From Deltaproteobacteria bacterium (GTDB lineage: Bacteria; Myxococcota_A; UBA9042; PHBI01; JACKFB01), in assembly GCA_020632695.1 (NCBI GenBank), contig JACKFB010000003.1, positions 321,061-385,060 of the forward strand: a stretch of DNA of 64,000 nucleotides, given 5' to 3'. Below, piece by piece: positions 14,600-52,563 of this stretch. The notes below the pieces were generated by a model that was not told where the DNA came from, searched no databases, and saw only the letters and a list, made by a program, of their open reading frames with translations. Made by a program: the position numbers and the translations under genes. Every line of letters begins with the position of its first letter. Within the stretch, counting starts at the first letter, position 1.

Positions 14600-16693
14600 A
14601 TGCGTGGGTTCCTCGTCGGGGTGGCGGTGTCGGTCGCCGGGCTGTGGGCCTGCACGGATCAGCACGTGGAGTATGTGAAGGACAGCGGCGGGCGGGCCGA
14701 CGCGGTGGTGCGGGCGGATCCGGGGGCGGACGCCGGGGCCGAGACCGGGGCCGAGACCGGGGCCGAGACCGGGGCCGAGGCCGGGGCCGAGACCGGGGCC
14801 GAGACCGGGGCGGAGGCCGGGGCCGAGGCCGGGGCCGAGACCGGGGCCGAGACCGAGACCGGGGCCGAGACCGAGACTGGCGGCGAGACCGAGACTGGCG
14901 GCGAGACCGATTCGGGGCCGGGTTGTGACACATCGACGCCCGACCCGGTGGTTTGCGATGACGGAGACCCCTGCACCATCGACGTCGGGACCATCGACCC
15001 GGTCACCTGCGTGCTGAGCTGCGTGTCGACGCCCGTGGCCGATCCCGACGGCGACCCCGACGGGGACGGGCTGGGCACCTGCGCCGAGCTGTCCGATGGC
15101 ACCGACTGGACCGACCCCCTCGTCCACAACGGGCTCATGGCCACCATCGGCCGGGCGCCGGACTTCGCGCTGGTCTGGCAGGGCGGCTGCGAGGCCCTGC
15201 CGGACGATTACGGCGCCCTGGTCGCCGAGGCCTTCGAGGGCTCCGAGCCCTCCATGCCCATCCGCGCCGGCTGGGACTACGAGGCCGCCGCCACGGCCGA
15301 CTACAGCCACCCGAGCTACCCCTTCGACCCGCCCTTCACCTCGGCCGATCAGGTCGGCAGCTACGGCAGCTTCCAGCTCCTGCTCACCGGCGGCTTCAGC
15401 CTGGACGCGCCCGGCCGCGTCTGCCTGTCTGTCGACATCGGCGCTGGCGGCGCCGGCCCCGCCGACATCGCCGGGCGCAAGAACGGCTGCGCCCGCGTCT
15501 ACCTGGACCCCGACCTCGAGCCGGCGCCCCTGGCCGAGACGGGCTACGGCTCGGCAGCCAGCCCCGCCACCGGCTGCGCGACGCTCGAGGCCGGCCCGCA
15601 CGCCGTCGCCTGGGTCATCCGCCACAACGAGGCCTACACCTACGCGCCGCGCTTCCATCCGCGCTGGTGCGTCTCCTCCGGCGCCGACTGCGTCCCCGAC
15701 CAGCCCTTCGCCCAGGCGCAGCTCCGCTCGAGCGGGCTGACCGTCGGCTGCGAGCCGGCGTGCGCGGGCAAGACCTGCGGCCCCGACGGCTGTGGTGGCG
15801 ACTGCGGCACCTGCGAGTCCCCAGCCACCTGCACCGCCGCCGGTACCTGCCAGACCACCTGCGCGCCGGCGTGCCAGGGAAAGGTCTGCGGCCCCGACGG
15901 CTGCGGCGGCGACTGCGGCACCTGCGACGCCGGCGAGACCTGCGACGCCGGCGTCTGCCTGGGTACCGGCCCCGCCGTCTGCGGCGACGGGAAGCTCGGC
16001 GGCGGCGAAGCCTGCGACGACGGGAACACCGCCACCGAGAAGCCCCCCGACGTCGCGTCCCTGCCCGCCGGCGCCTGCATCTCCGACTGCTCCGTCGCCA
16101 TGAAGACCTGCGGCAACGGCAGCTTCGAGCCCGCCCTCGGCGAGGAGTGCGACGACGGCAACGCCATCGACACCGACGCCTGCGACAGCTCCTGCATCAC
16201 CAACACCTTCGACATCGGGTCGGCGTGCACCCAGAGCGTCGGCGAGAACGAGCCGAACTTCACCAGCGGCACCATCACCGGCTGCGACGAGGTCCCCGCC
16301 ACCTTCGGCGGCTGCGCCCGCGGCTGCCTCCGCAGCATCCAGCCACCGCTTGGCGCCGCCTTCGTCAGCAACCCGGGCGGCTACTGCACCCTGGTCGCCA
16401 CCAAGTGCGACGGGTCGGGGGTCATCTGCGGCAGCGCACCGAAGATGGGCGACTTCGCCACCTGCACGGCCTGCCCCGAGGGCTTCGTGCTGAGCGAGAC
16501 GGCCACGGCGGTCGAAGCCATCGGCTTCAAGGCCACGATCACCTCCCGCTCCTGCCTCCGTCCCTGCCAGACGCAGTCGGATTGTCGCTGGCGTCAGTGG
16601 GAGTCGCACTCGGATGTGAAGGCGTGGCGCAGCTATGTCTGCAAGGCGCTCCCGTCCACGGGCACGGCCAGGGTCTGCGTGCCGTCACCATGA
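14600..16693 (+). CDS. secreted Cys-rich repeat lipoprotein
   Basis: Start at Met 513 of ORF 13064..16693. Lipobox GLWAC. (ETGA)n low-complexity linker. Two CAGKTCGPDGCGGDCGTC modules. CGDGxxxxxExCDDGN units (myxococcal Cys-rich repeat type). Confidence 0.7.
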   Translation: MRGFLVGVAVSVAGLWACTDQHVEYVKDSGGRADAVVRADPGADAGAETGAETGAETGAEAGAETGAETGAEAGAEAGAETGAETETGAETETGGETETGGETDSGPGCDTSTPDPVVCDDGDPCTIDVGTIDPVTCVLSCVSTPVADPDGDPDGDGLGTCAELSDGTDWTDPLVHNGLMATIGRAPDFALVWQGGCEALPDDYGALVAEAFEGSEPSMPIRAGWDYEAAATADYSHPSYPFDPPFTSADQVGSYGSFQLLLTGGFSLDAPGRVCLSVDIGAGGAGPADIAGRKNGCARVYLDPDLEPAPLAETGYGSAASPATGCATLEAGPHAVAWVIRHNEAYTYAPRFHPRWCVSSGADCVPDQPFAQAQLRSSGLTVGCEPACAGKTCGPDGCGGDCGTCESPATCTAAGTCQTTCAPACQGKVCGPDGCGGDCGTCDAGETCDAGVCLGTGPAVCGDGKLGGGEACDDGNTATEKPPDVASLPAGACISDCSVAMKTCGNGSFEPALGEECDDGNAIDTDACDSSCITNTFDIGSACTQSVGENEPNFTSGTITGCDEVPATFGGCARGCLRSIQPPLGAAFVSNPGGYCTLVATKCDGSGVICGSAPKMGDFATCTACPEGFVLSETATAVEAIGFKATITSRSCLRPCQTQSDCRWRQWESHSDVKAWRSYVCKALPSTGTARVCVPSP
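14741..14900 (+). repeat. tandem 12-bp coding repeat (gagaccggggcc)n encoding (ETGA)n
   Basis: Perfect or near-perfect 12-bp tandem units inside the lipoprotein gene. Confidence 0.8.
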
Positions 16694-18112: not shown

Positions 18113-18547
18113 ATGACCGTCGCGCTCGAGTATCCCAAGGGGCTGTATGGGCCGTCGCCGCTGGTCGATCTGTCCGACCGGACCGTGCGTGAGCGGTTGG
18201 GTCCGGCGGCGGTCAAGGCCTTCTTCCGCATCATGGAGGCCTGGGGCGTGCGGGACGAGCAGGCGCGGCGTCTCCTGGGCGGCATGTCCAACGGCGCCTT
18301 CTACGCGCTGAAGAAGCAGCCGGAGCGGACGCTGGACGAGGATCGGCTGCGGCGGGTGTCCTTGCTGGTCGGCATCTTCAAGGCGCTCAACATCCTCTAC
18401 GACGAGGCGCTGGCCGACCGCTGGATGCAGCTCCCCAACCGCAACCGCCTGTTCGGCGGCGAGACCCCGCTCGACTACCTGATGTCCGGCGGCCTCCCGG
18501 CCTTCCTGACCCTGCGCCGGCTGCTCGATGCTCGCCGCGCAGGGTGA
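18113..18547 (+). CDS. Xre-like antitoxin with DUF2384 domain (RES-Xre system)
   Basis: 144 aa. C-terminal region typical of MbcA/ParS/Xre DUF2384 antitoxins. Overlaps the downstream RES gene by 20 nt. Confidence 0.7.
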   Translation: MTVALEYPKGLYGPSPLVDLSDRTVRERLGPAAVKAFFRIMEAWGVRDEQARRLLGGMSNGAFYALKKQPERTLDEDRLRRVSLLVGIFKALNILYDEALADRWMQLPNRNRLFGGETPLDYLMSGGLPAFLTLRRLLDARRAG

Positions 18548-19232
18548 GCTGCCGCCGGTCACCCGGCTGAGCCGCGCGGGCACGCACCGCCTGATCCCGT
18601 CGAACTACCTCGACGAGGGCGACAGCGTGCTGACGCGCCTCACCGGCGACGAGGGCGAGCTGGCGCTGCTCTTCGAGCTGGACCAGGCCACCAATGACCG
18701 CGGCGCCGCCGAGAACGGGCGCGCGCCGGCCATCGGCCCCGACGAGCTGGTCTTCGGCGTGCCCTACTACCGCACCGTCAACGCCGCCTTCGTCCATGCC
18801 CACCCGCTGGGCGCCCGCTTCAACGGGCCCGAGCGCGGCGCTTGGTACGCGGCCTTCGAGCTGCGCACCGCCCAGGCCGAGGTCGCCTGGCACAAGTCGG
18901 TCGAGCTGGCCGAGGTGGGCTGGTTCGAGCAGCGCCTGACCTGTGACGAGATGCTGGCCGACTTCGCCGGGCCCTTTCACGACCTCCGCGGCCAGCAAGC
19001 CTTCGCCGACTGCCTGCGCCCCGACAGCTACGAAGCCTCCCAGGCCCTGGCCGAGCGCCTGCTCGAGGCGGGCTCCGGCGGCGTCGTCTACCCGAGCATC
19101 CGTCGCGCCGCCGGCACCTGCCTGGCCTGCCTGCGCCCCGCGCTGGTCTACAACGTCCGCCGCGGCGCGCGCTACGTCTTCACCTGGTCCGGCAACGCCT
19201 CCCCGACCATCCGCCGGGAGAGCGGCGCCTGA
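18528..19232 (+). CDS. RES domain toxin
   Basis: R...E...S signature arrangement (RFNGPERGAWYAAFE ... YEASQALAERL ... VVYPSIRRAAG). Lies immediately downstream of the DUF2384 antitoxin. Confidence 0.75.
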   Translation: MLAAQGELPPVTRLSRAGTHRLIPSNYLDEGDSVLTRLTGDEGELALLFELDQATNDRGAAENGRAPAIGPDELVFGVPYYRTVNAAFVHAHPLGARFNGPERGAWYAAFELRTAQAEVAWHKSVELAEVGWFEQRLTCDEMLADFAGPFHDLRGQQAFADCLRPDSYEASQALAERLLEAGSGGVVYPSIRRAAGTCLACLRPALVYNVRRGARYVFTWSGNASPTIRRESGA

Positions 19233-22873: not shown

Positions 22874-24232
22874 CTACTGCTCGCACTCGCAGACGGACAT
22901 CTTGCCCTGCACGGTGGTCCACCACTGGCCCGTCCAGCGGGCCGGCGCGGCGCACACCTTCGGGCACTTCTTCTTCGCGTCGCCCTGGTTCCAGATGGGC
23001 CCCGCCTCGACGGCCTGCTTCACCGGCACCGGCGTCACGCACTCGCAGACCGACATCTTGCCGGCCACCGTCGTCCACCACTGCCCGTTCCACTTCGAGG
23101 GCGCCGTGCAGACCTTCGGGCACTTCTTCTTCGCGTCGCCCTGGTTCCAGATGGGGCCGGCCTTCCGCGCCTCCTTCGTCTCGGCCGGCGCGGGCTGCGG
23201 CGGAGCCTCGACGACCACCGGCGGCGGCTCGGGCTCGGGCTCGGGCGTGACGACGACCACCGGCGGCGGCGCCCCCACCTCGCACTCACACACCGACATC
23301 TTGCCCTGCACGGTGGTCCACCACTGCCCGGTCCAGCGCGCCGGACCGCGGCACACCCTCGGGCACTTCTTCTTGGCGTCGCCCTGGTTCCAGATGGGCC
23401 CGGCTTCGCGCGCCTCCTTGAAGACGACCGGCGTCGCGCACTCGCACACCGACATCTTGCCCTGGACCGTGGTCCACCACTGGCCGGTCCACCGCGACGG
23501 CGCGCTGCACACGCTCGGGCACTTCTTCTGGGCGTCGCCCTGGTTCCAGATGGGGCCCGCCTCGCGCGCCTCCTTCGTCTCCGCCGGGGCCGCCGAGACC
23601 GGAGCGGGCGCGGGCTCCTCGGCCGCCTCGCTGATGCGCCAGAGCTGGTTCCGGTTGCCCGACGCCTTCTTCGGGTACGCGATGATGCGCGCCAGCGGCT
23701 CGGGGCTGCCGCCGTCGATGTCGAGGACGAAGCCGTTGAGCTTGCTCTCGATGAAGAACCAGCCGGGGACCGGCGAGCGCACCCGGCGCCAGAGCTGGTT
23801 GTCGGTGCCCTCCGCCTTCTTCGGGTAGGCGATGATGCCGGTGGCCGGCGCGGGGTTGGCGCCGTCGATGTCGAGGACGAAGCCATTGAGCTTGCTCTCG
23901 ATGAAGAACCAGCCGCGCTGGGGCGCCGGCACCATGCGCCAGAGCTGGTTGTCGGCGCCCTCGGCCTTCTTCGGGTAGGAGATGACGTGCGCGGCCGGCG
24001 CGTTGCTGCCGCCCTCGATGTCCATCACGAAGCCGTTGAGGCGGCTCTCGATGTAGCCGAAGTCGCCGCGATCGCCGTGCGGGGCGCGGCGCGCCTGAGC
24101 CGTGCCCGCCGATGCGGTGACGGCGAGGGCGACGGTCAGCGCGAGACCTCGCAGCCTGAGCGCCGGAGGCCGGGCGCTGCGCGGGTCGGGCGGCGGGGCG
24201 GCGACGGGAAGACGGGGCGGTGTGGTGATCAT
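22874..24232 (-). CDS. secreted lectin-like protein: three ricin-B (QxW) repeats plus four small 4-Cys lectin-like repeats
   Basis: Signal peptide. Three beta-trefoil-type LNGFVLDIDG...AYPKK...DNQLWR repeats. Then four copies of AGPIWNQGDAKKKCP.VC..P.RWTGQWWTTV.GKMSVCEC, resembling the family NCBI names mannan-binding family protein. Confidence 0.7.
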   Translation of the reverse strand: MITTPPRLPVAAPPPDPRSARPPALRLRGLALTVALAVTASAGTAQARRAPHGDRGDFGYIESRLNGFVMDIEGGSNAPAAHVISYPKKAEGADNQLWRMVPAPQRGWFFIESKLNGFVLDIDGANPAPATGIIAYPKKAEGTDNQLWRRVRSPVPGWFFIESKLNGFVLDIDGGSPEPLARIIAYPKKASGNRNQLWRISEAAEEPAPAPVSAAPAETKEAREAGPIWNQGDAQKKCPSVCSAPSRWTGQWWTTVQGKMSVCECATPVVFKEAREAGPIWNQGDAKKKCPRVCRGPARWTGQWWTTVQGKMSVCECEVGAPPPVVVVTPEPEPEPPPVVVEAPPQPAPAETKEARKAGPIWNQGDAKKKCPKVCTAPSKWNGQWWTTVAGKMSVCECVTPVPVKQAVEAGPIWNQGDAKKKCPKVCAAPARWTGQWWTTVQGKMSVCECEQ

Positions 24233-24365
24233 GGCGACTCCTCGGGGGCGGACCGCCGGCAAGCCTCGACGAGGGCGCCGCCACCCATACCGGCGGGCAG
24301 CGGCGGGTCGTCGACCGGCGATGTCGGGAACGAGGCGGCGACGCTACACCAGCCGAGGAATTCAA

Positions 24366-39640: not shown

Positions 39641-39830
39641 CACGGCGCCCTCGCTCGCCGCTGACGGCGCCTCGGTCAGTGGCGGGGTTGGAGCGTTCGG
39701 CTCGGCCGGGGCCTTCGGCTCGGCCTCGGCTGCGGGGTCGGACTCGGTCTCGGCTTCGGTCTCGGTCTCGGTCTCGGTCTCCGCCTCGGTCCCGGTCTCG
39801 GCCTCGGTCCCGCGGGAGTTCCTGAGCCCC
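39641..39830. repeat. about 190-bp GC-rich repeat element, copy A (ends in (gcctcggtctcg)n)
   Basis: First about 90 bp are near-identical to 40443..40530, then it degenerates into 9-12-bp GC-rich tandem units. Confidence 0.65.
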
Positions 39831-39915
39831 GCACTCTGAACGCACCCAGCGCTTGGAGCCGCGCATCACGTTCCGTACACTCCGCTTGCCAACGCTTGGC
39901 CGTGGGTACTGGACG

Positions 39916-40152
39916 ATGACGACCGCTGCGCAAATCAAGAGTGACTTCACCAAGTTGCCGGTTGGCGAACAGATCGAGCTGCTCTGCGAACTCTGGAACG
40001 ACCTGGCCCGGGAGCCCGGTGCCGTCGCGCTGAGCGATGATCAGAAGCGCGCGTTGGAACGCCGCTACGAACGCCATCTCCAGCATCCGGAGGAGGCCAT
40101 TCCTTGGGAGGAGGTCCGGGACAGCATCCGGAGCAGACGCAGGGAGTCGTGA
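39916..40152 (+). CDS. addiction-module antitoxin (TIGR02574-like putative addiction module component)
   Basis: 78 aa from Met 22 of ORF 39853..40152. LPVGEQIELLCELWNDL motif. Its TGA overlaps the GTG of the downstream toxin. Confidence 0.65.
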   Translation: MTTAAQIKSDFTKLPVGEQIELLCELWNDLAREPGAVALSDDQKRALERRYERHLQHPEEAIPWEEVRDSIRSRRRES

Positions 40153-40442
40153 TCCGCTTCCGACCTGAAGCGCGGTCCGATGCACAGTCGGCGTATGATT
40201 GGTATGAGGACAAGGAGAGCGGGCTCGGTGATCGATTGGTGGACGCCATCGATGCCCTGATGGACCGCGTCGACGCGAACCCCCGCCTCTTTCCAAAGGC
40301 CCATCAAGAGTTTCGGCGCGCAGTACTCTCCCAATTCCTATACTGCGTGTACTTCGTCGTTGAGCCGGCCTGCGTCCTCGTCGTCGGCGTTCTCCACGGT
40401 CGCCAGGACCTGCGTCGACTGTTGGAGCGCCTTCGTCGGTGA
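40149..40442 (+). CDS. type II toxin, ParE/RelE superfamily
   Basis: 97 aa. VIRFRPEARSDAQSAYDWYE...FPKAHQEFRRAVLSQFLYCVYFVVE is ParE-like. GTG start overlapping the antitoxin stop. Confidence 0.7.
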   Translation: MIRFRPEARSDAQSAYDWYEDKESGLGDRLVDAIDALMDRVDANPRLFPKAHQEFRRAVLSQFLYCVYFVVEPACVLVVGVLHGRQDLRRLLERLRR

Positions 40443-40680
40443 GTGCGCCCTCGCTCGCCGCTGCCGGCGCCTCGGACGGGGCGGGTTGGGAGTGTTCGGC
40501 TCGGCCGGGGCCTTCGGCCTGGCCTCGATTGCGGCCCCGGAGGCGGTCTCGGCCCCGGTCTCGGAGGCGGTCTCGGCCTCGGAGGCGGTCTCGGCCTCGG
40601 AGGCGGTCCCGGCCTGGGAGGCGGTCTCGGCTTCGCCTCGGCCCCGGCTCCGGCCTCGGGCCTCGGACGCCCTCTCGGTC
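40443..40680. repeat. about 190-bp GC-rich repeat element, copy B
   Basis: Homologous to copy A, beginning right after the toxin stop. Confidence 0.65.
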
Positions 40681-40749
40681 CCGGCGTCCGTGCTCGCGCC
40701 GAGGGCCTTCCGCTTGACCTTTGCGGTCGGCCTGCCAGATCCTCTGCTC

Positions 40750-41055
40750 ATGAACAGCACTTACGACACTGCCCGACGGCTCGCTCGCTTGCACCGGGTC
40801 GAGGATCCCGACACCCGGCAGGTCTACTTCTTCGACGCCCCCAACGAGGTACGCCTCCTCGAGATCTCCGACGCCGTCGGGTACACGGGAGAGGTCCTGC
40901 CCTTCCGATTCGGCGCGAGGCCCGACGTGGGCATCGACTACCCGTCCGTCGTCATCCTGTTGACTCCACAGGAACTTGATGAGCTGCGCGACGGCACGCT
41001 CTCGCTGCCTGATGCCTGGGGGGACCTCGACGCCTCGCGCTTGCTGGACGAATAG
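40750..41055 (+). CDS. hypothetical 101-aa protein (first gene of uncharacterized two-gene module)
   Basis: Start at Met 131 of ORF 40360..41055. No motif recognised. A 4-nt gap to the next gene suggests an operon. Confidence 0.5.
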   Translation: MNSTYDTARRLARLHRVEDPDTRQVYFFDAPNEVRLLEISDAVGYTGEVLPFRFGARPDVGIDYPSVVILLTPQELDELRDGTLSLPDAWGDLDASRLLDE

Positions 41056-41058
41056 GGG

Positions 41059-41550
41059 ATGCCACGTCACCGCGATTGGGCGGACGCGTACCTGGCTCAG
41101 GCGCGAGCAGACCTCGAAGGCGCGAGGAACCTCACTGGCGCAGTGCCTTCCGTCTTCGCCATGCTCCTGCAGATGGCCTTCGAGAAGATGGCCAAAGCGG
41201 CGCTTCTTCGGTCCGAGGCGGTCCCGCTCGATTGGGTGAGAACCTCCCACAGGGCTGCCTCCCGGATGACGCAGATGATGCGTCGACAGCGTGGCCTGCT
41301 CGGACCGCTTGGCGGGCCCTGGCGTTGGGAGGGGATCCTGCAGGTCATCAACGCTCTCGAGGGAGCCCATCCGCAGGTGGCTCGCGCGGGACCTCATCTC
41401 GAGTACCCGTGGGAGGGTCTCGATGGCCGCATCCTCTGGCCCGAAGAGCACCTCCAGATAGCCGGCAAGCTCGGCCAGTCCAGACAAGCGGCAGATGTCC
41501 TGAAGTTCGCCACGTTGGTCGAGCGGAACTTCGACGAGATCTTCCCCTGA
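41059..41550 (+). CDS. HEPN-like helical protein (tentative)
   Basis: 163 aa. N-terminal helix pattern [10 protein letters not shown]...[19 protein letters not shown] resembles HEPN. The R-x(n)-H motif is not canonical. Confidence 0.45.
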
Positions 41551-41575
41551 GATTCGCGGGAGCGGGACCGCCGTC

Positions 41576-41700
41576 GCTGATGACGCCGTTGAAGCCGGGC
41601 TGCTCGTCGCGGACACGCTCGACCTCGCGCAGGTTCGACGCCTCCGAGCGGTTCTGGATGATGTGTCCCTCGTGCACCCGGGCGCCGACCATCGCGTCCA
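41576..41700 (-). pseudogene. 120-bp internal fragment of a ygiQ-like radical SAM gene
   Basis: About 90% identical to 51221..51340 inside the intact ygiQ, in the same orientation. The translated fragment reads [34 protein letters not shown]. Confidence 0.6.
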
Positions 41701-41818
41701 AGAATGGGCCCGGCGGGCGTTGTGCGGCCGCCCGGGGCCCGCTAATATCGCCCGACCGTGACACCCCTTGCCCACCCTCCCGGCGTCAACAACGCATGAG
41801 GACCATTCGAGGAGATTC

Positions 41819-42649
41819 ATGATGACGACCACTGTCGAGAGCTTCGTAGCCCTGTTCGTCACCCCCACGCGCCGCCGCATCTTCGCGTGCACCGAGTGCG
41901 CGAAGGCGGCCGAGGCGCGCGGCCTCAACGACCTGGCAGAGCGCGCGATGGCCGCGGTGCGGGCCGATGAGGCCGTCCTGGAGCTGGAGCGGGCCCGCCG
42001 CGCGCCGCCACGTGCGGCCCAGCACGCGGAGACCGCGCCGGAGCGGGACGCCCGCATCGACCACGCCCTGACCGCCATCGACCAGACGCTGGCCCACATC
42101 GCGCGCGTCTTCGGTGAGGAGAGCGAGCGCGGCCAGAGGGCCACCGCGCTGCGAGGGAAGATCTTCCCCCTGGGGGTCACCGGCGTCACCGCGCTGCCCT
42201 ATGTCGAGCAGTACGGCGAGGTGAAGAGCCTCCTCGCCAAGCTCCAGGGCGAGTGGGCCGCCGATGTCGATGCCACCATGATCGCGCCCTTCATCGCGCA
42301 GCTCGCCGAGCTGAACCCGGGCTACGGCGCCATCCTGAACCCCGCCCCGGACGCCCGCCCCACCGCCGACGAGGTCCGCGCCGAGAACGCCAAGGGCCAA
42401 CGCCGCCTGCTGGCGCTGGTCGCGACCATCCTCGGCCGCTTCCCCGACGACACCGACACCGACATCGCCGCCCGCGACGCCCTCCTCGGCCCGATCGCCC
42501 GCCAGAACGACGCCCTGCGCGAGCTGCGGCGCGCTCGCGGCGGCGGCGGCGACCCCGCCACCCTTGACCTGCCCGATCCCGACGCGGCGCCGGTCGCCGA
42601 CTCCATGACGGCGAGCGCCGACGCGACGAGCGAGGCCCCTGCCCTCTGA
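41819..42649 (+). CDS. hypothetical 276-aa helical protein
   Basis: ATG preceded by GAGGAG. High GC. No motif recognised. Acidic low-complexity C-terminus. Confidence 0.55.
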   Translation: MMTTTVESFVALFVTPTRRRIFACTECAKAAEARGLNDLAERAMAAVRADEAVLELERARRAPPRAAQHAETAPERDARIDHALTAIDQTLAHIARVFGEESERGQRATALRGKIFPLGVTGVTALPYVEQYGEVKSLLAKLQGEWAADVDATMIAPFIAQLAELNPGYGAILNPAPDARPTADEVRAENAKGQRRLLALVATILGRFPDDTDTDIAARDALLGPIARQNDALRELRRARGGGGDPATLDLPDPDAAPVADSMTASADATSEAPAL

Positions 42650-43167
42650 CGCGCCCCTCCCCGGACCGGTCGAGCACGCCCTGCACGCCCCAGGATTCGC
42701 TCGACCGGACCGGACCACCGCCGCCCGGATCTAACGCAGGCCCCCGCAACCGATGACGACCGCCCTCCGCAACGCCATCCAGGCCAGGCGACGACCACCC
42801 CACCGCCCCGCCTGGTTCCTCCGACCCCCGACGACGACCAGCCCACCGCCCGGGCCAGCCCCTCCGAGGCCCCCGCTGGACCAGTCAACTCCCCCGCCGA
42901 GCGTCTCTGAGGCGCCCCGAGCAGCAGTCGACTGCGCCGCCCAGGGCCTCCGAGACACTCACGAGACCACCGACCCGTCGCGAGCCCCCGCGGATGCAGC
43001 GCCGCCTGAGCTGCGCGATGCATCCCCACTGTGGGATTCCTGCACCAATGGCCGGACGGGCCACGCTCTTCGAGCTATGCTGACGCCGCGCGCGCCGTCC
43101 GGCACGTCCGCACACCGGGACTCCTGCGGGCGGCATCCCCTCGCGACCGCTTCCTCAGAGGACATCG

Positions 43168-46100
43168 ATGACTTCCGAACGCCACCTGGAAGAGTCGTTC
43201 ATCGCCAAGCTCGTCAGCCTCAAGTACGAGTATTGTGAAGACATCGATGATCGGGACAGCCTCGAAACCAACTTCCGCCAGAAGTTCCAAGCGCTCAACC
43301 AGGTCAAGCTGACCGACGGCGAGTTCAAGCGACTCCTCGACGAGATCGTCACGCCGGACGTCTATGAAGCCGCGCGCGCCCTGCGAAATCGGGAGGCGTT
43401 CATCCGCGATGACGGCACCCCGCTCAACTACACGCTTGTCAACATCAAGGACTGGTGCAAGAACAGCTTCCAGGTCATCAACCAGCCGAGCATCAACACG
43501 GACAACAGCCGTCACCGCTACGATGTCCTGCTCCTGATCAATGGCGTCCCTGTGGTCCAGGTCGAGCTCAAGACGCTCGGAATCAGCCCCCGGCGAGCGA
43601 TGGAGCAGATCGTCGCGTACAAGAACGACCCCGGGAACGGCTACTCGAAGACGCTGCTCTGCTTCATCCAGCTCTTCATCGTCAGCAACCGCACGGACAC
43701 TTGGTACTTCGCGAACAACAACGCGCGGCATTTCGCCTTCGACGCCGACGAGCGCTTCCTTCCCATCTACCAGTTCGCCACCGACGACAACACGAAGGTC
43801 ACCCACCTCGATGACTTCGCCGAGGCCTTCCTGGCCAAGTGCACGCTCGGGCACATGATCAGCAAGTACATGGTTCTCATCGCCAGCGAGCAGAAGCTGA
43901 TGATGATGCGGCCGTATCAGATCTACGCCGTGAAGGCCATCGTCGACTCCATCGACCAGGACTGCGGCAACGGTTACATCTGGCATACGACCGGCTCCGG
44001 CAAGACGCTGACCTCCTTCAAGGCCTCGACGCTCCTCAAGACCAACGAGCGCATCCACAAGTGTCTCTTCGTCGTGGACCGCAAGGACCTCGACCGCCAG
44101 ACCCGCGAGGAGTTCAACCGCTTCCAAGAGGGTTGCGTCGAAGAAAACACCAACACCGCGACGCTCGTCGACCGCCTTCTGTCCGATGACTACGCCGACA
44201 AGGTCATCGTCACCACCATCCAGAAGCTCGGCCTGGCCCTCGACCAGAACAGCAAGCAGAGCAAGCAGCACGTCGCTCGGGGCCGGAACACCTACAAGCA
44301 GCGGCTGGAGTCCCTGCGCGACAAGCGCATGGTGTTCATCTTCGACGAGTGCCACCGCTCCCAGTTCGGCGAGAACCACAAGGCCATCAAGGAGTTCTTC
44401 CCCAACTCCCAGCTCTTCGGCTTCACCGGCACGCCGATCTTCAAGGACAACGCCACCGTGAAGCAGGTGGAAGGCGACAAGGCCACGCTGCGTACCACGC
44501 AGGACCTGTTCCAGAAGCAGCTCCACGCCTACACGATCACCCACGCCATCGAGGACCGCAACGTCCTCCGCTTCCACGTCGACTACTACAAGCCCAAGGA
44601 CGCCGCGGTCCCCCCGCCGGGCGAGACGTTGACGAAGAAGGCCGTCGCCCAGGCCATCCTCGACAAGCACGATGCGGCGACAGGAGCCCGGCGCTTCAAC
44701 GCGCTGCTCGCCACCGCTTCCATCAACGACGCCATCGAGTACCACGGCGTCTTCAAGAAGCTGCAAGCCGAGCGCCTGGCGGCAGACCCCGGCTTCGTGC
44801 CCCTGAAGATCGCAGCGGTGTTCTCCCCCCCGGCGGCGGGCAACAGGGACGTCCAGCAGCTCCAAGAGGACCTGCCCCAAGAGAAGGAGGACAACCGCCA
44901 GGATCCCGAGGGAAAGAAGGCCGCGCTCGAGGCCATCATCACCGACTACAACCAGCGGTACGGCACCAACCACGACATCAACAATTTCGACCTCTACTAC
45001 CAGGACGTCCAGCAGCGCATCAAGTACCAGCAGTTCCCCAACCGCGACCTGCCCCAGAAGGGCGCCGAGAAGATCGACATCACCATCGTGGTCGACATGC
45101 TGCTCACCGGCTTCGACGCCCGGTTCCTGAACACGCTCTACGTGGACAAGAATCTCAAGCACCACGGCCTGATCCAGGCCTTCTCGCGCACCAACCGTGT
45201 CCTCAACGCGACGAAGCCCTACGGCCACATCCTCGACTTCCGCCAGCAGCAGAAGAGCGTCGACGCCGCGATCACGCTCTTCTCCGGCGCACAGGCCGAC
45301 CGGGCCCGCGAGATCTGGCTGGTCGACAAGGCCCCCGTCGTCATCGAGAATCTCGAACAGGCCGTCGCCGACCTCGGCGCGTTCATGAAGTCCCAAGGCC
45401 TCGAAGCCAGACCAGAACAGGTGAACAACCTGAAGGGCGACGCCGCCCGAGCGCAGTTCATCAAGCGATTTCGGGAGGTCCAGCGCCTCCAGACGCAGCT
45501 CGACCAGTACACCGACCTCACCGAGGAGCAGCGGGAGCAGATCGAGCAGGCCCTTCCCAAAGACGATCTCCGTGCCTTCCGCGGCGTCTACCTCGAGACG
45601 GCCAAGCGCCTGAGGGAGCAGCAAGCCGTCGCGGGCACTGGCGAAGCGCCGGTCGACCCCGAGCTCGACCAGCTCGACTTCGAGTTCATCCTCTTCGCCT
45701 CCGCGGACATCGACTACGACTACATCATGAAGCTGATCGCGAAGTACTCGGGCCTGGACCCGGAGCGAAGCGAGAAGACCCGCCAGCAGCTCATCGGCAT
45801 GATCCAGTCCGACGCCAAGTTCCTGGACGAGCGCGAGTCGATCACCGAGTACGTCCGCTCGCTTCCGGTGGGCGAGGCGCTCGACGAGTCCGCCGTCCAC
45901 TCCGGGTACGAGAAGTTCAAGGCCGCGCGGCAGGCCAAGGAGCTCGAACGCCTCGCCGAGGCCCATGGCCTGACGAAGGAGTCCCTCTCGGCCTTCGTCG
46001 ACACCATCCTCCAGCGCATGGTGTTCGACGGCGAGCTGCTCACCGACCTGATGGCGCCCCTCGATCTGGGCTGGCGCGAACGCCGCGAGCGAGAGCTCGC

Positions 46101-46194
46101 CCTTATGACGCAGCTCGTCCCGCTCCTGAACAAGAGGGCCCACGGCCGGGAGATCTCAGGCCTGAATGCGTACGAGCATGGGGGAGGCCGGTGA
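43168..46194 (+). CDS. hsdR: type I restriction enzyme R subunit
   Basis: 1008 aa. DEAD/DEAH helicase motifs (TGSGKT, DECHRSQ), an N-terminal restriction domain and the C-terminal HsdR helical domain. GC markedly lower than flanking DNA. Confidence 0.95.
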   Translation: MTSERHLEESFIAKLVSLKYEYCEDIDDRDSLETNFRQKFQALNQVKLTDGEFKRLLDEIVTPDVYEAARALRNREAFIRDDGTPLNYTLVNIKDWCKNSFQVINQPSINTDNSRHRYDVLLLINGVPVVQVELKTLGISPRRAMEQIVAYKNDPGNGYSKTLLCFIQLFIVSNRTDTWYFANNNARHFAFDADERFLPIYQFATDDNTKVTHLDDFAEAFLAKCTLGHMISKYMVLIASEQKLMMMRPYQIYAVKAIVDSIDQDCGNGYIWHTTGSGKTLTSFKASTLLKTNERIHKCLFVVDRKDLDRQTREEFNRFQEGCVEENTNTATLVDRLLSDDYADKVIVTTIQKLGLALDQNSKQSKQHVARGRNTYKQRLESLRDKRMVFIFDECHRSQFGENHKAIKEFFPNSQLFGFTGTPIFKDNATVKQVEGDKATLRTTQDLFQKQLHAYTITHAIEDRNVLRFHVDYYKPKDAAVPPPGETLTKKAVAQAILDKHDAATGARRFNALLATASINDAIEYHGVFKKLQAERLAADPGFVPLKIAAVFSPPAAGNRDVQQLQEDLPQEKEDNRQDPEGKKAALEAIITDYNQRYGTNHDINNFDLYYQDVQQRIKYQQFPNRDLPQKGAEKIDITIVVDMLLTGFDARFLNTLYVDKNLKHHGLIQAFSRTNRVLNATKPYGHILDFRQQQKSVDAAITLFSGAQADRAREIWLVDKAPVVIENLEQAVADLGAFMKSQGLEARPEQVNNLKGDAARAQFIKRFREVQRLQTQLDQYTDLTEEQREQIEQALPKDDLRAFRGVYLETAKRLREQQAVAGTGEAPVDPELDQLDFEFILFASADIDYDYIMKLIAKYSGLDPERSEKTRQQLIGMIQSDAKFLDERESITEYVRSLPVGEALDESAVHSGYEKFKAARQAKELERLAEAHGLTKESLSAFVDTILQRMVFDGELLTDLMAPLDLGWRERRERELALMTQLVPLLNKRAHGREISGLNAYEHGGGR

Positions 46195-47453
46195 TGGCCG
46201 GATCGCCCCCTTCAACCGTACCAAAGCTTCGGTTCCCAGAGTTCCGGGAAGCGCCCGGGTGGGCACGCGATCAAATCGGCAATGTTGCAAGTATTACCAA
46301 AGGAAGGGGTGTCTCAAAGTCGGATGTGACGGAGGCGGGTGCAACTCCCTGCATCAGGTATGCAGAACTGTATACTTGCTATGGCGAGGTGATTCGTCAC
46401 GTGGTATCTCGCACGAACATCTCGCCCGATGAGTTGGTATTCAGCGAACCCGAGGATGTGATTGTGCCCGCGTCAGGAGAGACGCGAGCAGACATCGCGA
46501 GGGCTGCCTGCGTTGTCGACGGAGGCGTCGCACTAGGCAGTGATCTGAATGTCCTGCGGTCGCAGCTTAGCGGTCGGTTTTTCAGCTACGTGCTGAACAG
46601 TCCGCTTCGCCATACGATCGCACTACTCGCACAGGGCGATACGGTTGCTCACCTGTATCCCGCTCAGCTATCGCGTGTTTCGCTGGCTTACCCATCGCGG
46701 CGAGAGCAGCAGAAGATCGCCGACTGCCTCGGCTCGCTGGACGACCTGATTGCCGCCGAGGGCCGGAAGCTGGACACTCTGCGGCAGCACAAGCAAGGGC
46801 TGATGCAGGATCTCTTTCCTCGCATCGATGAGAGCCAGCCCAGAATGCGATTCCCTGAATATGCTCGTGCTCCTGCGTGGAAACCACGGAAGATCTCAGA
46901 TCTTCTCAAGAAGGCGTCCATCCAGGTCATCGTGGAGCCGGATACCAAGTATCAAGAAATCGGCGTGAGATCCCACGGAAATGGCGTGTTTCACAAGACG
47001 CCTGCGCTCGGGTCTCGTCTCGGTGCGAAGCGCGTCTTCGAGGTTGTCGAACAAGCCCTGGTCTTCAATACCGTCTTCGCCTGGGAACGCGCAGTCGCCA
47101 CGACTTCACGCGCGGAAGCAGGCATGATCGCTTCGCACCGATTCCCCATGTATCTCCCTAAGTTCGGGACGTGTGATGTTCGCTTCATGAAGTACGCATT
47201 CCTTACTCAGCGCGGTGCGCAGCTCCTGCACGTGGCATCCCCCGGGGGCGCGGGGCGGAACCGCACCCTCGGTCAAGCAGAACTCGGGGCGCTCGTGATG
47301 ACCGTGCCCAGTCTGGACGAGCAAGTCGCGATTGCGAGTATGATAGACGCAGCCTCGAATCTCATCGAGCTCCAAGCCGCCAATTGGGAACTGATAAAGC
47401 AGTATAAGGCCGGTCTTCTGCAACAGCTCTTCCCATCGCCCGGAGGCCACTGA
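46194..47453 (+). CDS. hsdS: type I restriction-modification specificity subunit
   Basis: 419 aa. Two target-recognition domains separated by conserved coiled regions. ATG overlaps the hsdR stop (TGATG). Confidence 0.85.
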   Translation: MAGSPPSTVPKLRFPEFREAPGWARDQIGNVASITKGRGVSKSDVTEAGATPCIRYAELYTCYGEVIRHVVSRTNISPDELVFSEPEDVIVPASGETRADIARAACVVDGGVALGSDLNVLRSQLSGRFFSYVLNSPLRHTIALLAQGDTVAHLYPAQLSRVSLAYPSRREQQKIADCLGSLDDLIAAEGRKLDTLRQHKQGLMQDLFPRIDESQPRMRFPEYARAPAWKPRKISDLLKKASIQVIVEPDTKYQEIGVRSHGNGVFHKTPALGSRLGAKRVFEVVEQALVFNTVFAWERAVATTSRAEAGMIASHRFPMYLPKFGTCDVRFMKYAFLTQRGAQLLHVASPGGAGRNRTLGQAELGALVMTVPSLDEQVAIASMIDAASNLIELQAANWELIKQYKAGLLQQLFPSPGGH

Positions 47454-47456
47454 ACG

Positions 47457-48635
47457 ATGCGGGACGCGCCAAAGATCCATCTGTACAGAAGCCTGACCAC
47501 GCTCGCAACCAGGCTGCGCAGTGATCTTAGAGACTTCCACAGCGTGCTCCTCTATGCCTATAATAGAACCGGGAAGACACGCCTTTCGATGGAGTTCAAG
47601 AAGCTAGGGAAGCGGAAAGGCAATGGCACCGCTGACACACTATACTTCAATGCATATACCGAGGACCTCTTCATCTGGGAGAATGACCTCGATTCCGACT
47701 GCGACCGCCATCTCCAACTCAATTCCAAGTCGGCGTTTCTGAAGTTACTCGCCGAGTTGGCCCTTGACCTGAGTATTGCTGAATATTTGTCGCGCTACGC
47801 CGATTTCGAATTTGACATCGACTACACCAGTTGGAAGGTGACGTTTCGGAAGGGCGATGAAGAACAGATCAAGATATCTCGAGGCGAGCAGAACATCTTC
47901 ATCTGGTGCATCTTCATGGCGATATGCGAGCAGGTTATCGCGGGACACTTGTCTTATCAATGGGTCAAGTATCTCTACATCGATGATCCCATTTCGTCGC
48001 TGGACGACAACAACGCTATCGCAGTTGCATGCGACCTCGCGGGCTTGCTTCGGAAGGCGGCCGCGAGGCGTGATATGGCGGGTAGTCCTGACCCGCTGCG
48101 AACGGTGATTTCCTCGCATCACGCGCTGTTTTTCAACGTGATGTGTAACGAGTTGAGCAGGAGACCCGAAGGACAGAACAAGGTAGATCACAAGCGATAC
48201 TTCTTGCAGCAGCCCACCGGCGAACGTGTCTACACGCTTCGCGCGACGGACGACACACCCTACTTCCACCACATCGCCACGCTTGCCGAATTGGACCGTT
48301 GCGCGAAGCGGACACGCTCTATACGTACCACTTCAATGCGCTGCGAAGTGTGCTGGAGAAGACGGCCAGCTTCTTCGGCCAGGAACTTCTCCGCCTGCAT
48401 TTTGCTTGCATAGATGAAGACGGGGGTTGAAGGATGAGGCTCTGTCTGCAATCTCGCACTGAACCTGCTGAGTCACGGCAGCTACGCCATCATGAGCCCA
48501 GTCGAGATGGTAGAGGACAACAAGAAGCTGTTTCGGCAAATCCTGGACGATTTCTTGAGCAAGTTTGAGTTCTTGCTTCCAGAGATCCTTCCATTGCCCA
48601 AGGCGAAGCGCCGATGCGAAATGACTGAACACTGA
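47457..48635 (+). pseudogene. ABC-type (AAA_15/AAA_21-like) ATPase gene, interrupted
   Basis: Walker A AYNRTGKT, ABC signature ISRGEQ, Walker B/D-loop LYIDDPISSLD, H-loop SSHH. After about 48.28 kb the plausible reading continues in the +1 frame and returns to the original frame at about 48.44 kb (ending ...KAKRRCEMTEH*). Confidence 0.5.
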
Positions 48636-50234
48636 CCAGCAGAAGCTCGGCAAGACGCTCTGGGCCATCGCCGATCAGCTCCGCGGGGCGATGAACGCGG
48701 ACGACTTTCGCGACTACATGCTCGCGTTCCTGTTCCTCCGCTACCTGTCGGACAACTACGAGCAGGCCGCGAAGAAGGAACTCGGGCGTGACTACCCGGA
48801 TCCAAAGGCGATCGGCAACGGCGGGCGGTCCGCTCTGTCCGTGTGGTACGGACAGAACCGGACGATGTGACGGCATTCGAGAAGCAGATGCGCCTCAAGG
48901 CGCACTATGTGATCCTCCCCAAGTACCTGTGGGCCAGCGTTTCCCACATGGCCCGCACTCAGGACGAGCAGCTTCTGAACACCCTCCAGGCCGGCTTCAA
49001 GTACATCGAGAACGAGTCGTTCGAGAGCACCTTCTCGGGCCTGTTCTCGGAGATCAACCTCGGCTCGGACAAGCTCGGCAAGAACTACTCCGCCCGCAAT
49101 ACGAAGCTCTGCACGATCATCGGCGAGATCGCGAAGGGGCTCGCCGATTTCTCCACCGACAGCGACACGCTGGGAGACGCCTACGAGTACCTGATCGGCC
49201 AGTTCGCCGCAGGCTCGGGCAAGAAGGCGGGCGAGTTCTACACGCCGCAGCGGATCTCGGACATCCTCTCCGGCATCGTCACGCTCGACAGCCAGGAGCC
49301 GGGGGCAGGGACGCGCGAGCGGCTCGGCAGCGTGATGGACTTCGCCTGCGGGTCGGGCTCGTTGCTGCTGAACGTCCGAAAGCGCATGGGGGCGCACGGC
49401 ATCGGGAGGATCTTCGGGCAGGAGAAGAACATCACGACCTACAATCTGGCGCGGATGAACATGCTGCTACATGGGGTGAAGGACTCAGAGTTCGAGATCT
49501 ACCATGGCGACACGCTGACCAACGACTGGGACATGCTCCGCGAGACCAACCCGGCGAAGAAGCCGTACTTCGACGCCGTGGTCGCCAATCCGCCGTTCAG
49601 CTACCGCTGGGACCCGAGTGACGCCTCGGCCGAGGATGTGCGCTTCAAGAACTACGGGCTGGCGCCGAAGTCTGCCGCGGACTTCGCGTTCTTGCTCCAC
49701 GGCTTCCACTACCTCAAAGACGACGGCGTGATGGCCATCATCCTGCCGCATGGGGTGCTGTTCCGCGGCGGTGCTGAGGCGAAGATACGCGCGAAGCTGC
49801 TCGAAGATGGCAACATCGACACCATCATCGGGCTGCCCGCGAACCTGTTCTACTCGACGGGGATCCCGGTCTGCATCCTGGTGCTCAAGAAGTGCAAGAA
49901 GCCCGATGACGTGTTGTTCATCAACGCCGTCGAGCATTTCGACAAGGGCAAGCGGCAGAACGTCCTCAGCGACGAGCACATCGCGAAGATCGTCAGAACC
50001 TACAAGCATCGCAAGGAGGAGACGCGGTACTCGCGGCGGGTGGAGATGGCCGAGATCCAGGCGAACGAGTACAACCTGAACATCTCGCGCTATGTGAGCA
50101 CGGCCAAGCCGGAGGTCGAGATCGACTTGGCGGCGACGCAAGAGGAGCTGGTGCGGATCGAGGACGAGATCCGCAAGGCGAAGGATCTGCACAACGGCTT
50201 CCTCGAGCAGCTCGGTCTGAAACCTCTGCCCTGA
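48621..50234 (+). pseudogene. hsdM: type I R-M N6-adenine DNA methyltransferase subunit, frameshifted
   Basis: ATG 48621 gives MTEH then a stop. The HsdM N-domain (DQQKLGKTLWAIADQLRG...FLFLRYLSD) is read in the +1 frame 48625..48870. The catalytic body with the ANPPF motif is in the original frame from 48843. Confidence 0.75.
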
Positions 50235-50300
50235 GGTGCGTTCGGGCCGCCTCTGGAAAGGGTGAGTCTCCCGAGCCGGAGGCCGTCGATCCCGATGTCG

Positions 50301-50346
50301 GTCTCGCCCCGGCCCCGGCCCCGGCCTCGGCCCCGGCCTCGGCGCG
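50301..50346. repeat. (gccccg)n-type simple repeat
   Basis: Hexamer tandem tract between the convergent ends of hsdM and ygiQ. Confidence 0.6.

Positions 50347-52563
<2,217 letters not shown>

Follow-up and report, generated by a model that had tools for sequence, protein, structure and literature searches.

The segment between positions 43168 and 50234 of a 64,000-nucleotide stretch from a Deltaproteobacteria bacterium (assembly GCA_020632695.1, contig JACKFB010000003.1, positions 321,061 to 385,060; hereafter the window) is very probably a horizontally acquired prr-type cassette, in which a type IC restriction-modification (R-M) system is combined with the anticodon nuclease PrrC and in which the stretch from 48107 to 48858 is frame-scrambled as deposited. 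It is a known kind of phage-defence cassette, newly seen in a Myxococcota-type metagenome-assembled genome (MAG), and it is either disrupted or locally mis-assembled there. The assignment is based on domain, profile and motif matches of the four genes, and the horizontal origin on the distribution of homologous cassettes among phyla and on the codon usage of the two central genes.

Gene content of the cassette

The cassette consists of four genes on the plus strand and is flanked by DNA of host composition:

42650..43167, no strand: host-composition spacer upstream of hsdR, GC 0.70-0.79
43168..46194, plus strand: hsdR, type IC restriction subunit, 1008 amino acids (aa), intact
46194..47453, plus strand: hsdS, specificity subunit, 419 aa, intact
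47457..48635, plus strand: prrC, anticodon nuclease, disrupted; the in-frame open reading frame (ORF) runs to 48413 (318 aa) and homology continues over three frames to 48635
48107..48858, plus strand: scrambled stretch with every lesion, covering the 3' third of prrC (nuclease domain) and the first ~80 codons of hsdM
48621..50234, plus strand: hsdM, type IC methyltransferase subunit, disrupted; ATG at 48621, frame restored at 48857
50347..52563, minus strand: ygiQ, radical S-adenosylmethionine (SAM) protein, intact host gene, with 112 nt between its stop and that of hsdM

The order hsdR-hsdS-ATPase-hsdM had been proposed in the original prediction, which was made by eye from the sequence, and is borne out, on the plus strand, by domain and profile searches. 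HsdR, which is 100% identical to the NCBI protein MCB9727865.1, contains the Pfam domains HSDR_N, SWI2_SNF2/ResIII, a T1R_D3-like domain and EcoR124_C (PF12008, E = 3.3e-66) and scores 384 bits against TIGR00348; its only matches in the PDB are HsdR of EcoR124I/II (E = 1e-120). The reconstructed HsdM matches TIGR00497 with 379 bits as well as N6_Mtase and HsdM_N, and its PDB match to the M subunit of EcoR124II (E = 2.5e-86) is far better than that to the M subunit of EcoKI (1e-14). Judged by these matches, HsdR and HsdM are EcoR124-type proteins, i.e., type IC. Residues 8 to 414 of HsdS align to positions 7 to 411 of the 411 positions of the PADLOC model Specificity_I (E = 4.5e-74), and the protein also matches Pfam Methylase_S. 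Both halves of HsdS align in tblastn to the regions flanking the target recognition domains (TRDs) of homologues, in line with a specificity subunit that has two TRDs and conserved central and distal regions. HsdS is identical to MCB9727866.1 and to the proteins encoded on two Logan contigs, L089 and L090.

The third gene, which had been labelled an ATPase, is best described as a PrrC anticodon nuclease, whose family membership is indicated by motifs, profile match and linkage, and whose cleavage of tRNA is predicted by homology. The frame-corrected protein matches the PADLOC model PDLC02360 with 408 bits (E = 8.4e-123; residues 8-374, profile positions 18-347 of 372), and the next-best PADLOC model reaches 37 bits. 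The reconstructed PrrC also matches Pfam AAA_13, and NCBI names its homologues "anticodon nuclease"; a search of the PDB with PrrC gave no match. The motifs described for PrrC, namely the Walker A lysine, the signature, Walker B and the linchpin histidine (PMC1484252), have counterparts in the undisturbed frame of the window prrC: NRTGKTR (residues 36-42), ISRGEQ (140-145), LYIDDPISSLD (173-183) and SSHH (219-222). The intact sibling protein P0241, to which the reconstructed PrrC is 93% identical, carries a Walker A motif with G39-K40-T41, the ATP-binding cassette (ABC)-signature-like ISRGEQ and the Walker B motif LYIDDPISSLD, and in addition the triad R297-x3-E301-x32-H334 with a serine preceding the histidine, in agreement with the published PrrC triad and motifs (PMC1484252, PMC2610378). 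PrrC has been described as always linked to type IC systems (PMC2610378, PMC1484252). Since the window PrrC is encoded between hsdS and hsdM of an EcoR124-type system, the locus is classified as prr-type. The earlier view of a type I R-M cassette holds, the system being EcoR124-like; however, replacing the label "ATPase" by PrrC alters the nature of the system.

The junctions between the genes differ. The hsdS ATG overlaps the hsdR stop codon as TGATG, hsdS and prrC are separated by a gap of 3 nt, and prrC and hsdM overlap by 4 nt in intact relatives, a junction that is damaged in the window. The 1-nt overlaps (TGATG) that had been described as typical of a compact operon are therefore confined to hsdR/hsdS, and the notion of a compact operon does not apply to the deposited sequence, in which prrC and hsdM are disrupted.

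Composition and probable horizontal acquisition

The GC content was profiled in 100-nt and 500-nt sliding windows across the 64-kb window. The block from 43168 to 50234 has a GC content of 60.4%, compared to 73.1% for the remainder. Background 500-nt windows have a mean GC content of 0.731 with a standard deviation (SD) of 0.027, and the 26 windows of the cassette have a mean of 0.605 (z = -4.6), every one of them lying at least 2.3 SD under the background mean. The edges are sharp, as had been seen by eye: the GC content of 100-nt windows drops at ~43100-43200, where hsdR starts, from 0.70-0.79 to 0.53-0.66, and just after hsdM, at ~50250-50300, it goes back up from 0.66 to 0.83. The discontinuity itself is thus real; the drop from roughly 70% to 50-55% that had been claimed is too large, however, as the cassette ranges from 50% to 67% GC, is at ~60% overall and reaches 50-58% only at 47.25-48.5 kb, in the hsdS-prrC core.

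The GC and codon-usage plot that had been proposed as a check gave a divided answer. Synonymous codon usage was scored against 35 host genes of the window, together with the GC content at third codon positions (GC3). hsdS (GC3 0.65, z = -9.1) and prrC (GC3 0.70, z = -8.6) are foreign by this measure, whereas hsdR (GC3 0.91, z = -0.9) and hsdM (GC3 0.92, z = -1.3) are host-like. In hsdR and hsdM, the low GC content arises at codon positions 1 and 2, i.e., from amino-acid composition. Because the synonymous codon usage of these two genes is host-like, the argument that low GC means foreign DNA fails for two-thirds of the cassette.

Support for a horizontal origin comes from comparison with other cassettes. 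HsdR is 82-85% identical to proteins of Rhodobacterales, Bradyrhizobium, Azospirillum, Acidobacteriaceae, Longimicrobium, Eisenbacteria and Kapaibacterium, whereas the product of the flanking ygiQ has no relative above 86% and is at ~72% outside the matches labelled Myxococcota. The order hsdR-hsdS-prrC-hsdM is common, also among metagenome contigs; it was found, for example, in three of these (L001, L002, L003) and in the conjugative Pseudomonas plasmid pMPC6-47K. An IncC plasmid of E. coli has the same order with two extra genes between hsdR and hsdS, and its prrC is annotated as "anticodon nuclease"; on the Sediminicoccus plasmid p17, the hsdS-prrC-hsdM part is annotated. Elsewhere, the cassette adjoins IS256-family transposase or serine recombinase genes. 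Homology to other cassettes spans the region from the hsdR ATG to the hsdM stop, with blastn alignments to L001 and L002 starting at 43167, and among five cassettes compared, no common sequence was found upstream of hsdR. The cassettes L001 and L002 have a GC3 of 0.88-0.89 for hsdR, 0.84-0.90 for hsdM, 0.64-0.67 for hsdS and 0.65-0.82 for prrC. As they reside in other hosts and share the GC3 pattern of the window, this pattern is a trait of the cassette lineage rather than the result of amelioration in the present genome. In more distant plasmid copies, GC3 is lower (0.44-0.77). By these matches, the donor would most likely have been one of the GC-rich Proteobacteria, and among these an alphaproteobacterium, with no finer naming; the BLAST searches that had been suggested for identifying the donor lineage did recover homologues at 82-85% in several phyla but narrowed the donor only to this group.

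Two observations were made on L001, which belongs to a GC-rich host. In its cassette (L001 541-5053), hsdR encodes 1156 aa owing to an internal duplication, the window segment 44645-45084 aligning to it twice, and a Transposase_mut (IS256-family) gene lies immediately upstream.

The window itself has none of the classical marks of a genomic island, i.e., an integrase or transposase, a tRNA target or flanking direct repeats. ARAGORN found no tRNA and Rfam no RNA family in it, neither Pfam nor NCBIfam detected an integrase or transposase among ~45 ORFs, and tblastn of six mobility proteins against the window gave no match, in full agreement with what had been stated about integrase, transposase and tRNA in the original prediction. 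No repeats flank the cassette except simple hexamer arrays that are also present elsewhere in the window. As for an empty site, YgiQ as query in a scan of the GTDB species genomes retrieved 80 loci, none above 73% identity and none with the flank genes or the cassette. The nearest relatives of ygiQ, on the contigs L084 and L085 (86% and 85% in a protein search), do not carry the cassette.

Two other accounts of the origin of the block have to be considered. The block might be an old resident of the lineage, its low GC content reflecting the amino-acid composition of conserved enzymes, and some of the data weigh in this direction and against horizontal acquisition: at synonymous sites, hsdR and hsdM do not stand out from the host (GC3 0.91-0.92, codon scores no more than about 1-1.3 SD away from host genes), there is no mobility gene, tRNA or flanking repeat to indicate an insertion, and the comparison with relatives did not yield a clean empty site, as synteny with L084 and L085 ends at ygiQ and the absence of the cassette there is weak evidence. 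An old resident is nevertheless very improbable. hsdS and prrC are 8-9 SD off the host codon usage, the GC3 pattern accompanies the cassette in other hosts, and the cassette is absent beside ygiQ in the two closest relatives. Moreover, HsdR reaches 82-85% identity across phyla, compared to at most 73% for YgiQ outside the matches labelled Myxococcota, and the HsdR identities already suggest a cassette phylogeny in conflict with the species tree. Equally improbable is a chimeric contig, with a foreign cassette wrongly placed between two segments of host DNA. In its favour, the sequence comes from a MAG, and the ends of the cassette are conserved community repeats at which other assemblies break; however, two mis-joins would be needed, one precisely at the start of hsdR and one precisely at the stop of hsdM, host-type DNA lies on both sides of the cassette within one 433-kb contig, and no cassette homology reaches into the flanks. 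Horizontal acquisition, as originally claimed, is hence retained on the basis of the genomic contexts, the cross-phylum HsdR matches and the codon usage of hsdS and prrC; the low-GC reasoning is dropped for hsdR and hsdM.

The hsdS-prrC core

The relationships of the single genes do not run in parallel. The window cassette is 85% identical to L002 in HsdR and 86% in HsdM, and 57% in PrrC; to pMPC6-47K (L086), it is 70% identical in HsdR, 76% in HsdM and 71% in PrrC. Since the relatedness of PrrC does not track that of HsdR and HsdM, the hsdS-prrC core appears to have been exchanged between cassettes. In the window, L001 and L002 taken together, GC3 is 0.84-0.92 for hsdR and hsdM and 0.64-0.82 for hsdS and prrC. 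The most probable course of events is as follows. hsdR and hsdM would stem from a cassette lineage already circulating in GC-rich bacteria, with the hsdS-prrC core as an exchangeable, compositionally distinct module. The cassette would then have entered the GC-rich Myxococcota-type genome horizontally as a bare four-gene unit and landed, with no recognisable mobility gene, in a variable stretch just downstream of ygiQ. In the deposited sequence, the scrambled stretch of 750 bp, a mosaic, takes the PrrC triad out of frame and destroys the start and the N-terminal domain of HsdM.

Lesions in prrC and hsdM

In the deposited sequence, prrC ends at a premature stop codon (48411-48413) after 318 aa, compared to 382 aa in intact relatives. 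Relative to the allele on L089 and five other intact alleles, it has a deletion of 1 nt after 48308, an insertion of 17 nt at 48403-48419 and an insertion of 2 nt at 48445-48446, and its C-terminal tail differs as well. Consequently, the catalytic Arg and Glu codons (ALRSVLE, ~48344-48358) lie in frame mod 2, whereas the start of prrC is in mod 0, and the His codon (LLSHG, 48465-48479) lies past the premature stop, so that the window prrC has no in-frame Arg-x3-Glu...His triad. In hsdM, an insertion of 1 nt at ~48632 follows the ATG at 48621 and leads to a stop at 48633-48635, five codons past the ATG, and a deletion of 1 nt at 48857 (AACCCG to AACCG) restores the original frame. With the intact HsdM of L001 and L002 as tblastn query, residues 5-79 are found in frame 1 (48634-48858) and residues 80-537 in frame 3 (48858-50231). 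The hsdM frameshifts were confirmed by DNA alignment with four intact alleles. The longest remaining hsdM ORF starts at a GTG at 48843 and encodes 463 aa without ~80 N-terminal residues, so that no intact hsdM is present. Among NCBI protein records, the present record has only HsdR and HsdS; missing records for PrrC and HsdM fit an annotation of both genes as pseudogenes. Elsewhere, Acs, SufB, SufC, SufD, SufS, YgiQ, HsdR and HsdS are full length, and the coding phase is continuous along the window.

Among the comparators, the Logan contig L089 (run SRR12358676) is the best. Not a single difference from the window was seen over 46119-48106, a length of 1988 nt that takes in the whole of hsdS and 650 nt at the 5' end of prrC. 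The two sequences differ in 75 alignment columns, every one of which lies within 48107-48628. At 14 of the first 16 sites where the window differs from L089, it has the L002-type state, and the prrC/hsdM junction ATGCGAAATGACTGAACA is of the L002 type, joined one base out of register to hsdM of the L089 type. In these alignments, the stretch from 48107 to 48858 has the appearance of a hybrid between two in-frame alleles. The clustering of the changes, their compensation, the length-variable sites and the mosaic pattern argue against independent decay. A diversity-generating retroelement as the cause of the clustered substitutions was ruled out, as the changes are not adenine-specific.

Origin of the damage

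The damage is thus either a recombination scar, formed between a resident and an incoming cassette, or a local artefact of assembly or polishing. In the latter case, the cassette would be intact in the organism and the 750-bp stretch produced by cross-mapping reads from other prr alleles; there is close to an even chance that this is so. Several observations weigh against damage in the organism itself. In L089, an independent Illumina-type contig whose hsdS is identical, prrC is intact and hsdM begins with a proper GTG. Every lesion lies in 48107-48858, while at least 12 kb of coding sequence checked elsewhere is clean, and three of the six lesions fall at places where alleles differ in length. 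The indels compensate, with -1, +17 and +2 adding up to 18 in prrC and +1 and -1 to 0 in hsdM, which is expected of a two-allele hybrid and would happen by chance in about 1 in 9 cases for independent mutations. Finally, the source is a MAG. The L002-type states at the early sites (14/16) and the L002-type junction out of register with L089-type sequence also fit an artefact, and so do the only other contigs with exactly this hsdS, L089 and L090 (runs SRR12358675/6): prrC of L089 is intact, and both contigs break in the conserved hsdR and hsdM ends, which suggests several cassette alleles in the community. On the other hand, an insertion of 17 nt and a junction with 3 nt of microhomology are untypical of k-mer graph assemblers, hsdR, which is equally conserved among alleles (86% at the nucleotide level), is untouched across 3 kb, and the MAG may derive from runs other than SRR12358675/6. 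In addition, a joint loss of the nuclease domain and of the silencing partner HsdM is biologically coherent, as PrrC expressed without Hsd proteins is active (PMC3014915).

It could also be speculated, although this is a doubtful proposal, that the stretch from 48107 to 48858 is the scar of a swap of the hsdS-prrC core, which would then be a separately exchangeable module in a conserved hsdR...hsdM frame. Such a swap would have joined two alleles out of register and, in one step, inactivated both the toxin and HsdM, the partner that silences it. Some bacterial type I systems phase-vary through repeat slippage. As an explanation of the frameshifts, phase variation of the R-M system is hardly credible, however, since no homopolymer or short tandem repeat is found at any lesion (the longest run is CC at 48857) and five separate lesions would need to revert together.

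If the deposited sequence is accurate, restriction, modification and tRNA cleavage would be impossible, and hsdR and hsdS would be intact but useless; the cassette as deposited is possibly a dead import. Further searches gave no match: exact look-ups of the window HsdR and the truncated PrrC ORF in the contig index, exact-pattern scans of JGI metagenomes with an hsdS-specific 39-mer and a 23-mer across the 17-nt insertion, and a literature search for the run and protein accessions all found nothing.

Comparison with known systems and predicted mode of action

A close counterpart is the prr locus of E. coli, which consists of EcoprrI and the tRNA-Lys anticodon nuclease PrrC. In both loci, a PrrC family protein of ~380-400 aa is encoded directly after hsdS inside a type IC hsd operon; its N-domain is an ABC-like NTPase, and the Arg-x3-Glu...His triad belongs to its C-domain (PMC1484252). 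The gene order differs, however, being hsdM-hsdS-prrC-hsdR in E. coli (PMC3014915) and hsdR-hsdS-prrC-hsdM in the window, and the window locus belongs to a Myxococcota-type MAG of 73% GC in which the nuclease domain and hsdM are frameshifted. Modules on plasmids, such as pMPC6-47K and the IncC plasmids of E. coli and Klebsiella (e.g., LC744502), and on Bradyrhizobium chromosomes share the gene order and overlapping junctions; p17 of Sediminicoccus shares the hsdS-prrC-hsdM part. PrrC of these modules is 48-71% identical to the window protein, and HsdR is 70% identical to that of pMPC6-47K and 81-83% to those of Bradyrhizobium. Whereas these modules are intact and lie beside recombinase, integrase or transfer genes, the window copy is a disrupted one on a chromosome, and no mobility gene is present within 64 kb. 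EcoR124I/II, the type IC prototype, resembles the window locus in the EcoR124_C domain of HsdR and in the PDB matches of HsdR and HsdM; however, EcoR124I has no anticodon nuclease (PMC3014915). RloC, a Rad50-like anticodon nuclease, is distantly homologous, shares the triad and the ABC ATPase motifs and occasionally occurs in type I loci (PMC2610378), but it is about twice as long, contains a zinc-hook/coiled-coil insert and is rarely linked to R-M systems. The window protein, by contrast, has the length of a PrrC, its intact sibling comprising 382 aa, and no other PADLOC model comes near the PrrC model in score.

By analogy to E. coli, an intact copy of the cassette would produce an R2M2S enzyme that methylates host DNA and cuts unmodified phage DNA, and PrrC would be kept silent by binding to this R-M enzyme. 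Upon blocking of the enzyme by a phage anti-restriction factor, PrrC would be switched on, accompanied by GTP hydrolysis and dTTP binding, and would then cut the anticodon loop of a tRNA, thereby stopping translation. This mechanism has been established for EcoprrI-PrrC of E. coli (PMC1484252, PMC3014915). While family membership, motif content and linkage can be read directly from the window genes and their intact relatives, activity, trigger and target tRNA are transferred from that system.

For annotation, it follows that an "ATPase" encoded within a type I operon should be read as a PrrC abortive-infection nuclease. The cassette also illustrates how misleading bulk GC can be, as two of the four genes are host-like at synonymous sites, and that defence cassettes in MAGs can bear local damage whose reality needs to be checked against reads. 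Should the damage be real, it would be a natural case of the toxin PrrC being lost along with its silencing partner, and a modular swap, if true, would add a little to what is known about the diversification of type I specificity and of the RNase linked to it. Beyond annotation, the significance is slight.

Insertion site and other features of the window

The intact ygiQ downstream of the cassette scores 843 bits against TIGR03904 (SAM_YgiQ), and its nearest relatives are 84-85% identical over 733 aa with no frameshifts. At the equivalent place, L084 carries BrnT/BrnA toxin-antitoxin genes, a Macro-domain gene and an insertion sequence element. Judging from two relatives only, and from the codon-atypical small genes on the other side of the window cassette, the region downstream of ygiQ seems to be a variable site where defence and addiction genes accumulate. 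The comparison for an empty site, which had been proposed as a check, gave the absence of the cassette beside ygiQ in these two relatives; a clean site and synteny beyond ygiQ were not found.

Further features were recorded on the left side of the cassette, where a second, shallower GC dip (0.64-0.69) is present at 39.7-41.8 kb:

39913-40149, plus strand: antitoxin gene, Unstab_antitox (PF09720, E = 4.5e-12), no recognisable toxin partner
40756-41052 and 41059-41550, plus strand: abutting two-gene module, no Pfam match
41574..41675, minus strand: isolated ygiQ-internal fragment (residues ~529-570), 102 nt, 9.66 kb from the intact gene

The antitoxin gene and the two-gene module have atypical codon usage (z from -3.4 to -5.8). 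The ygiQ fragment forms a direct repeat with 51230-51331 (93% identity), is 89% identical to ygiQ of L084 and has no ygiQ sequence on either side. A Campbell-type integration via this 102-nt repeat was ruled out, as ygiQ is intact and the left copy lacks ygiQ sequence at its sides. Hexamer arrays of the type (TCGGYC)n or its complement are found at 39697-39812, 40532-40635, 50306-50343 (between the hsdM and ygiQ stops) and 14737-14874; they were rejected as island borders, the same arrays being present at 14.7 kb. Two long minus-strand ORFs in this region were also discarded: an ORF of 837 aa (39676-42189) was judged spurious from its GC content by codon position, and an ORF of 235 aa (42322-43029) has no Pfam or NCBIfam match and no minus-strand coding signal in the phase plot.

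Beyond ygiQ, a unit of 72 nt is repeated in tandem ~75 times between 53343 and 58779, with a further periodicity of 216 nt. The repeats encode a cysteine-rich repeat of 24 aa in a giant minus-strand gene adjoining ygiQ, whose product is ~30% identical to a protein of 1633 aa encoded beside ygiQ in L085. In the left part of the window, an Xre-family antitoxin and a RES-domain toxin form a pair at 18113-19232 (PF09722/PF20432, PF08808), and the minus strand at 22874-24262 encodes a protein of 462 aa with four MVL mannan-binding repeats and ricin-B lectin domains.

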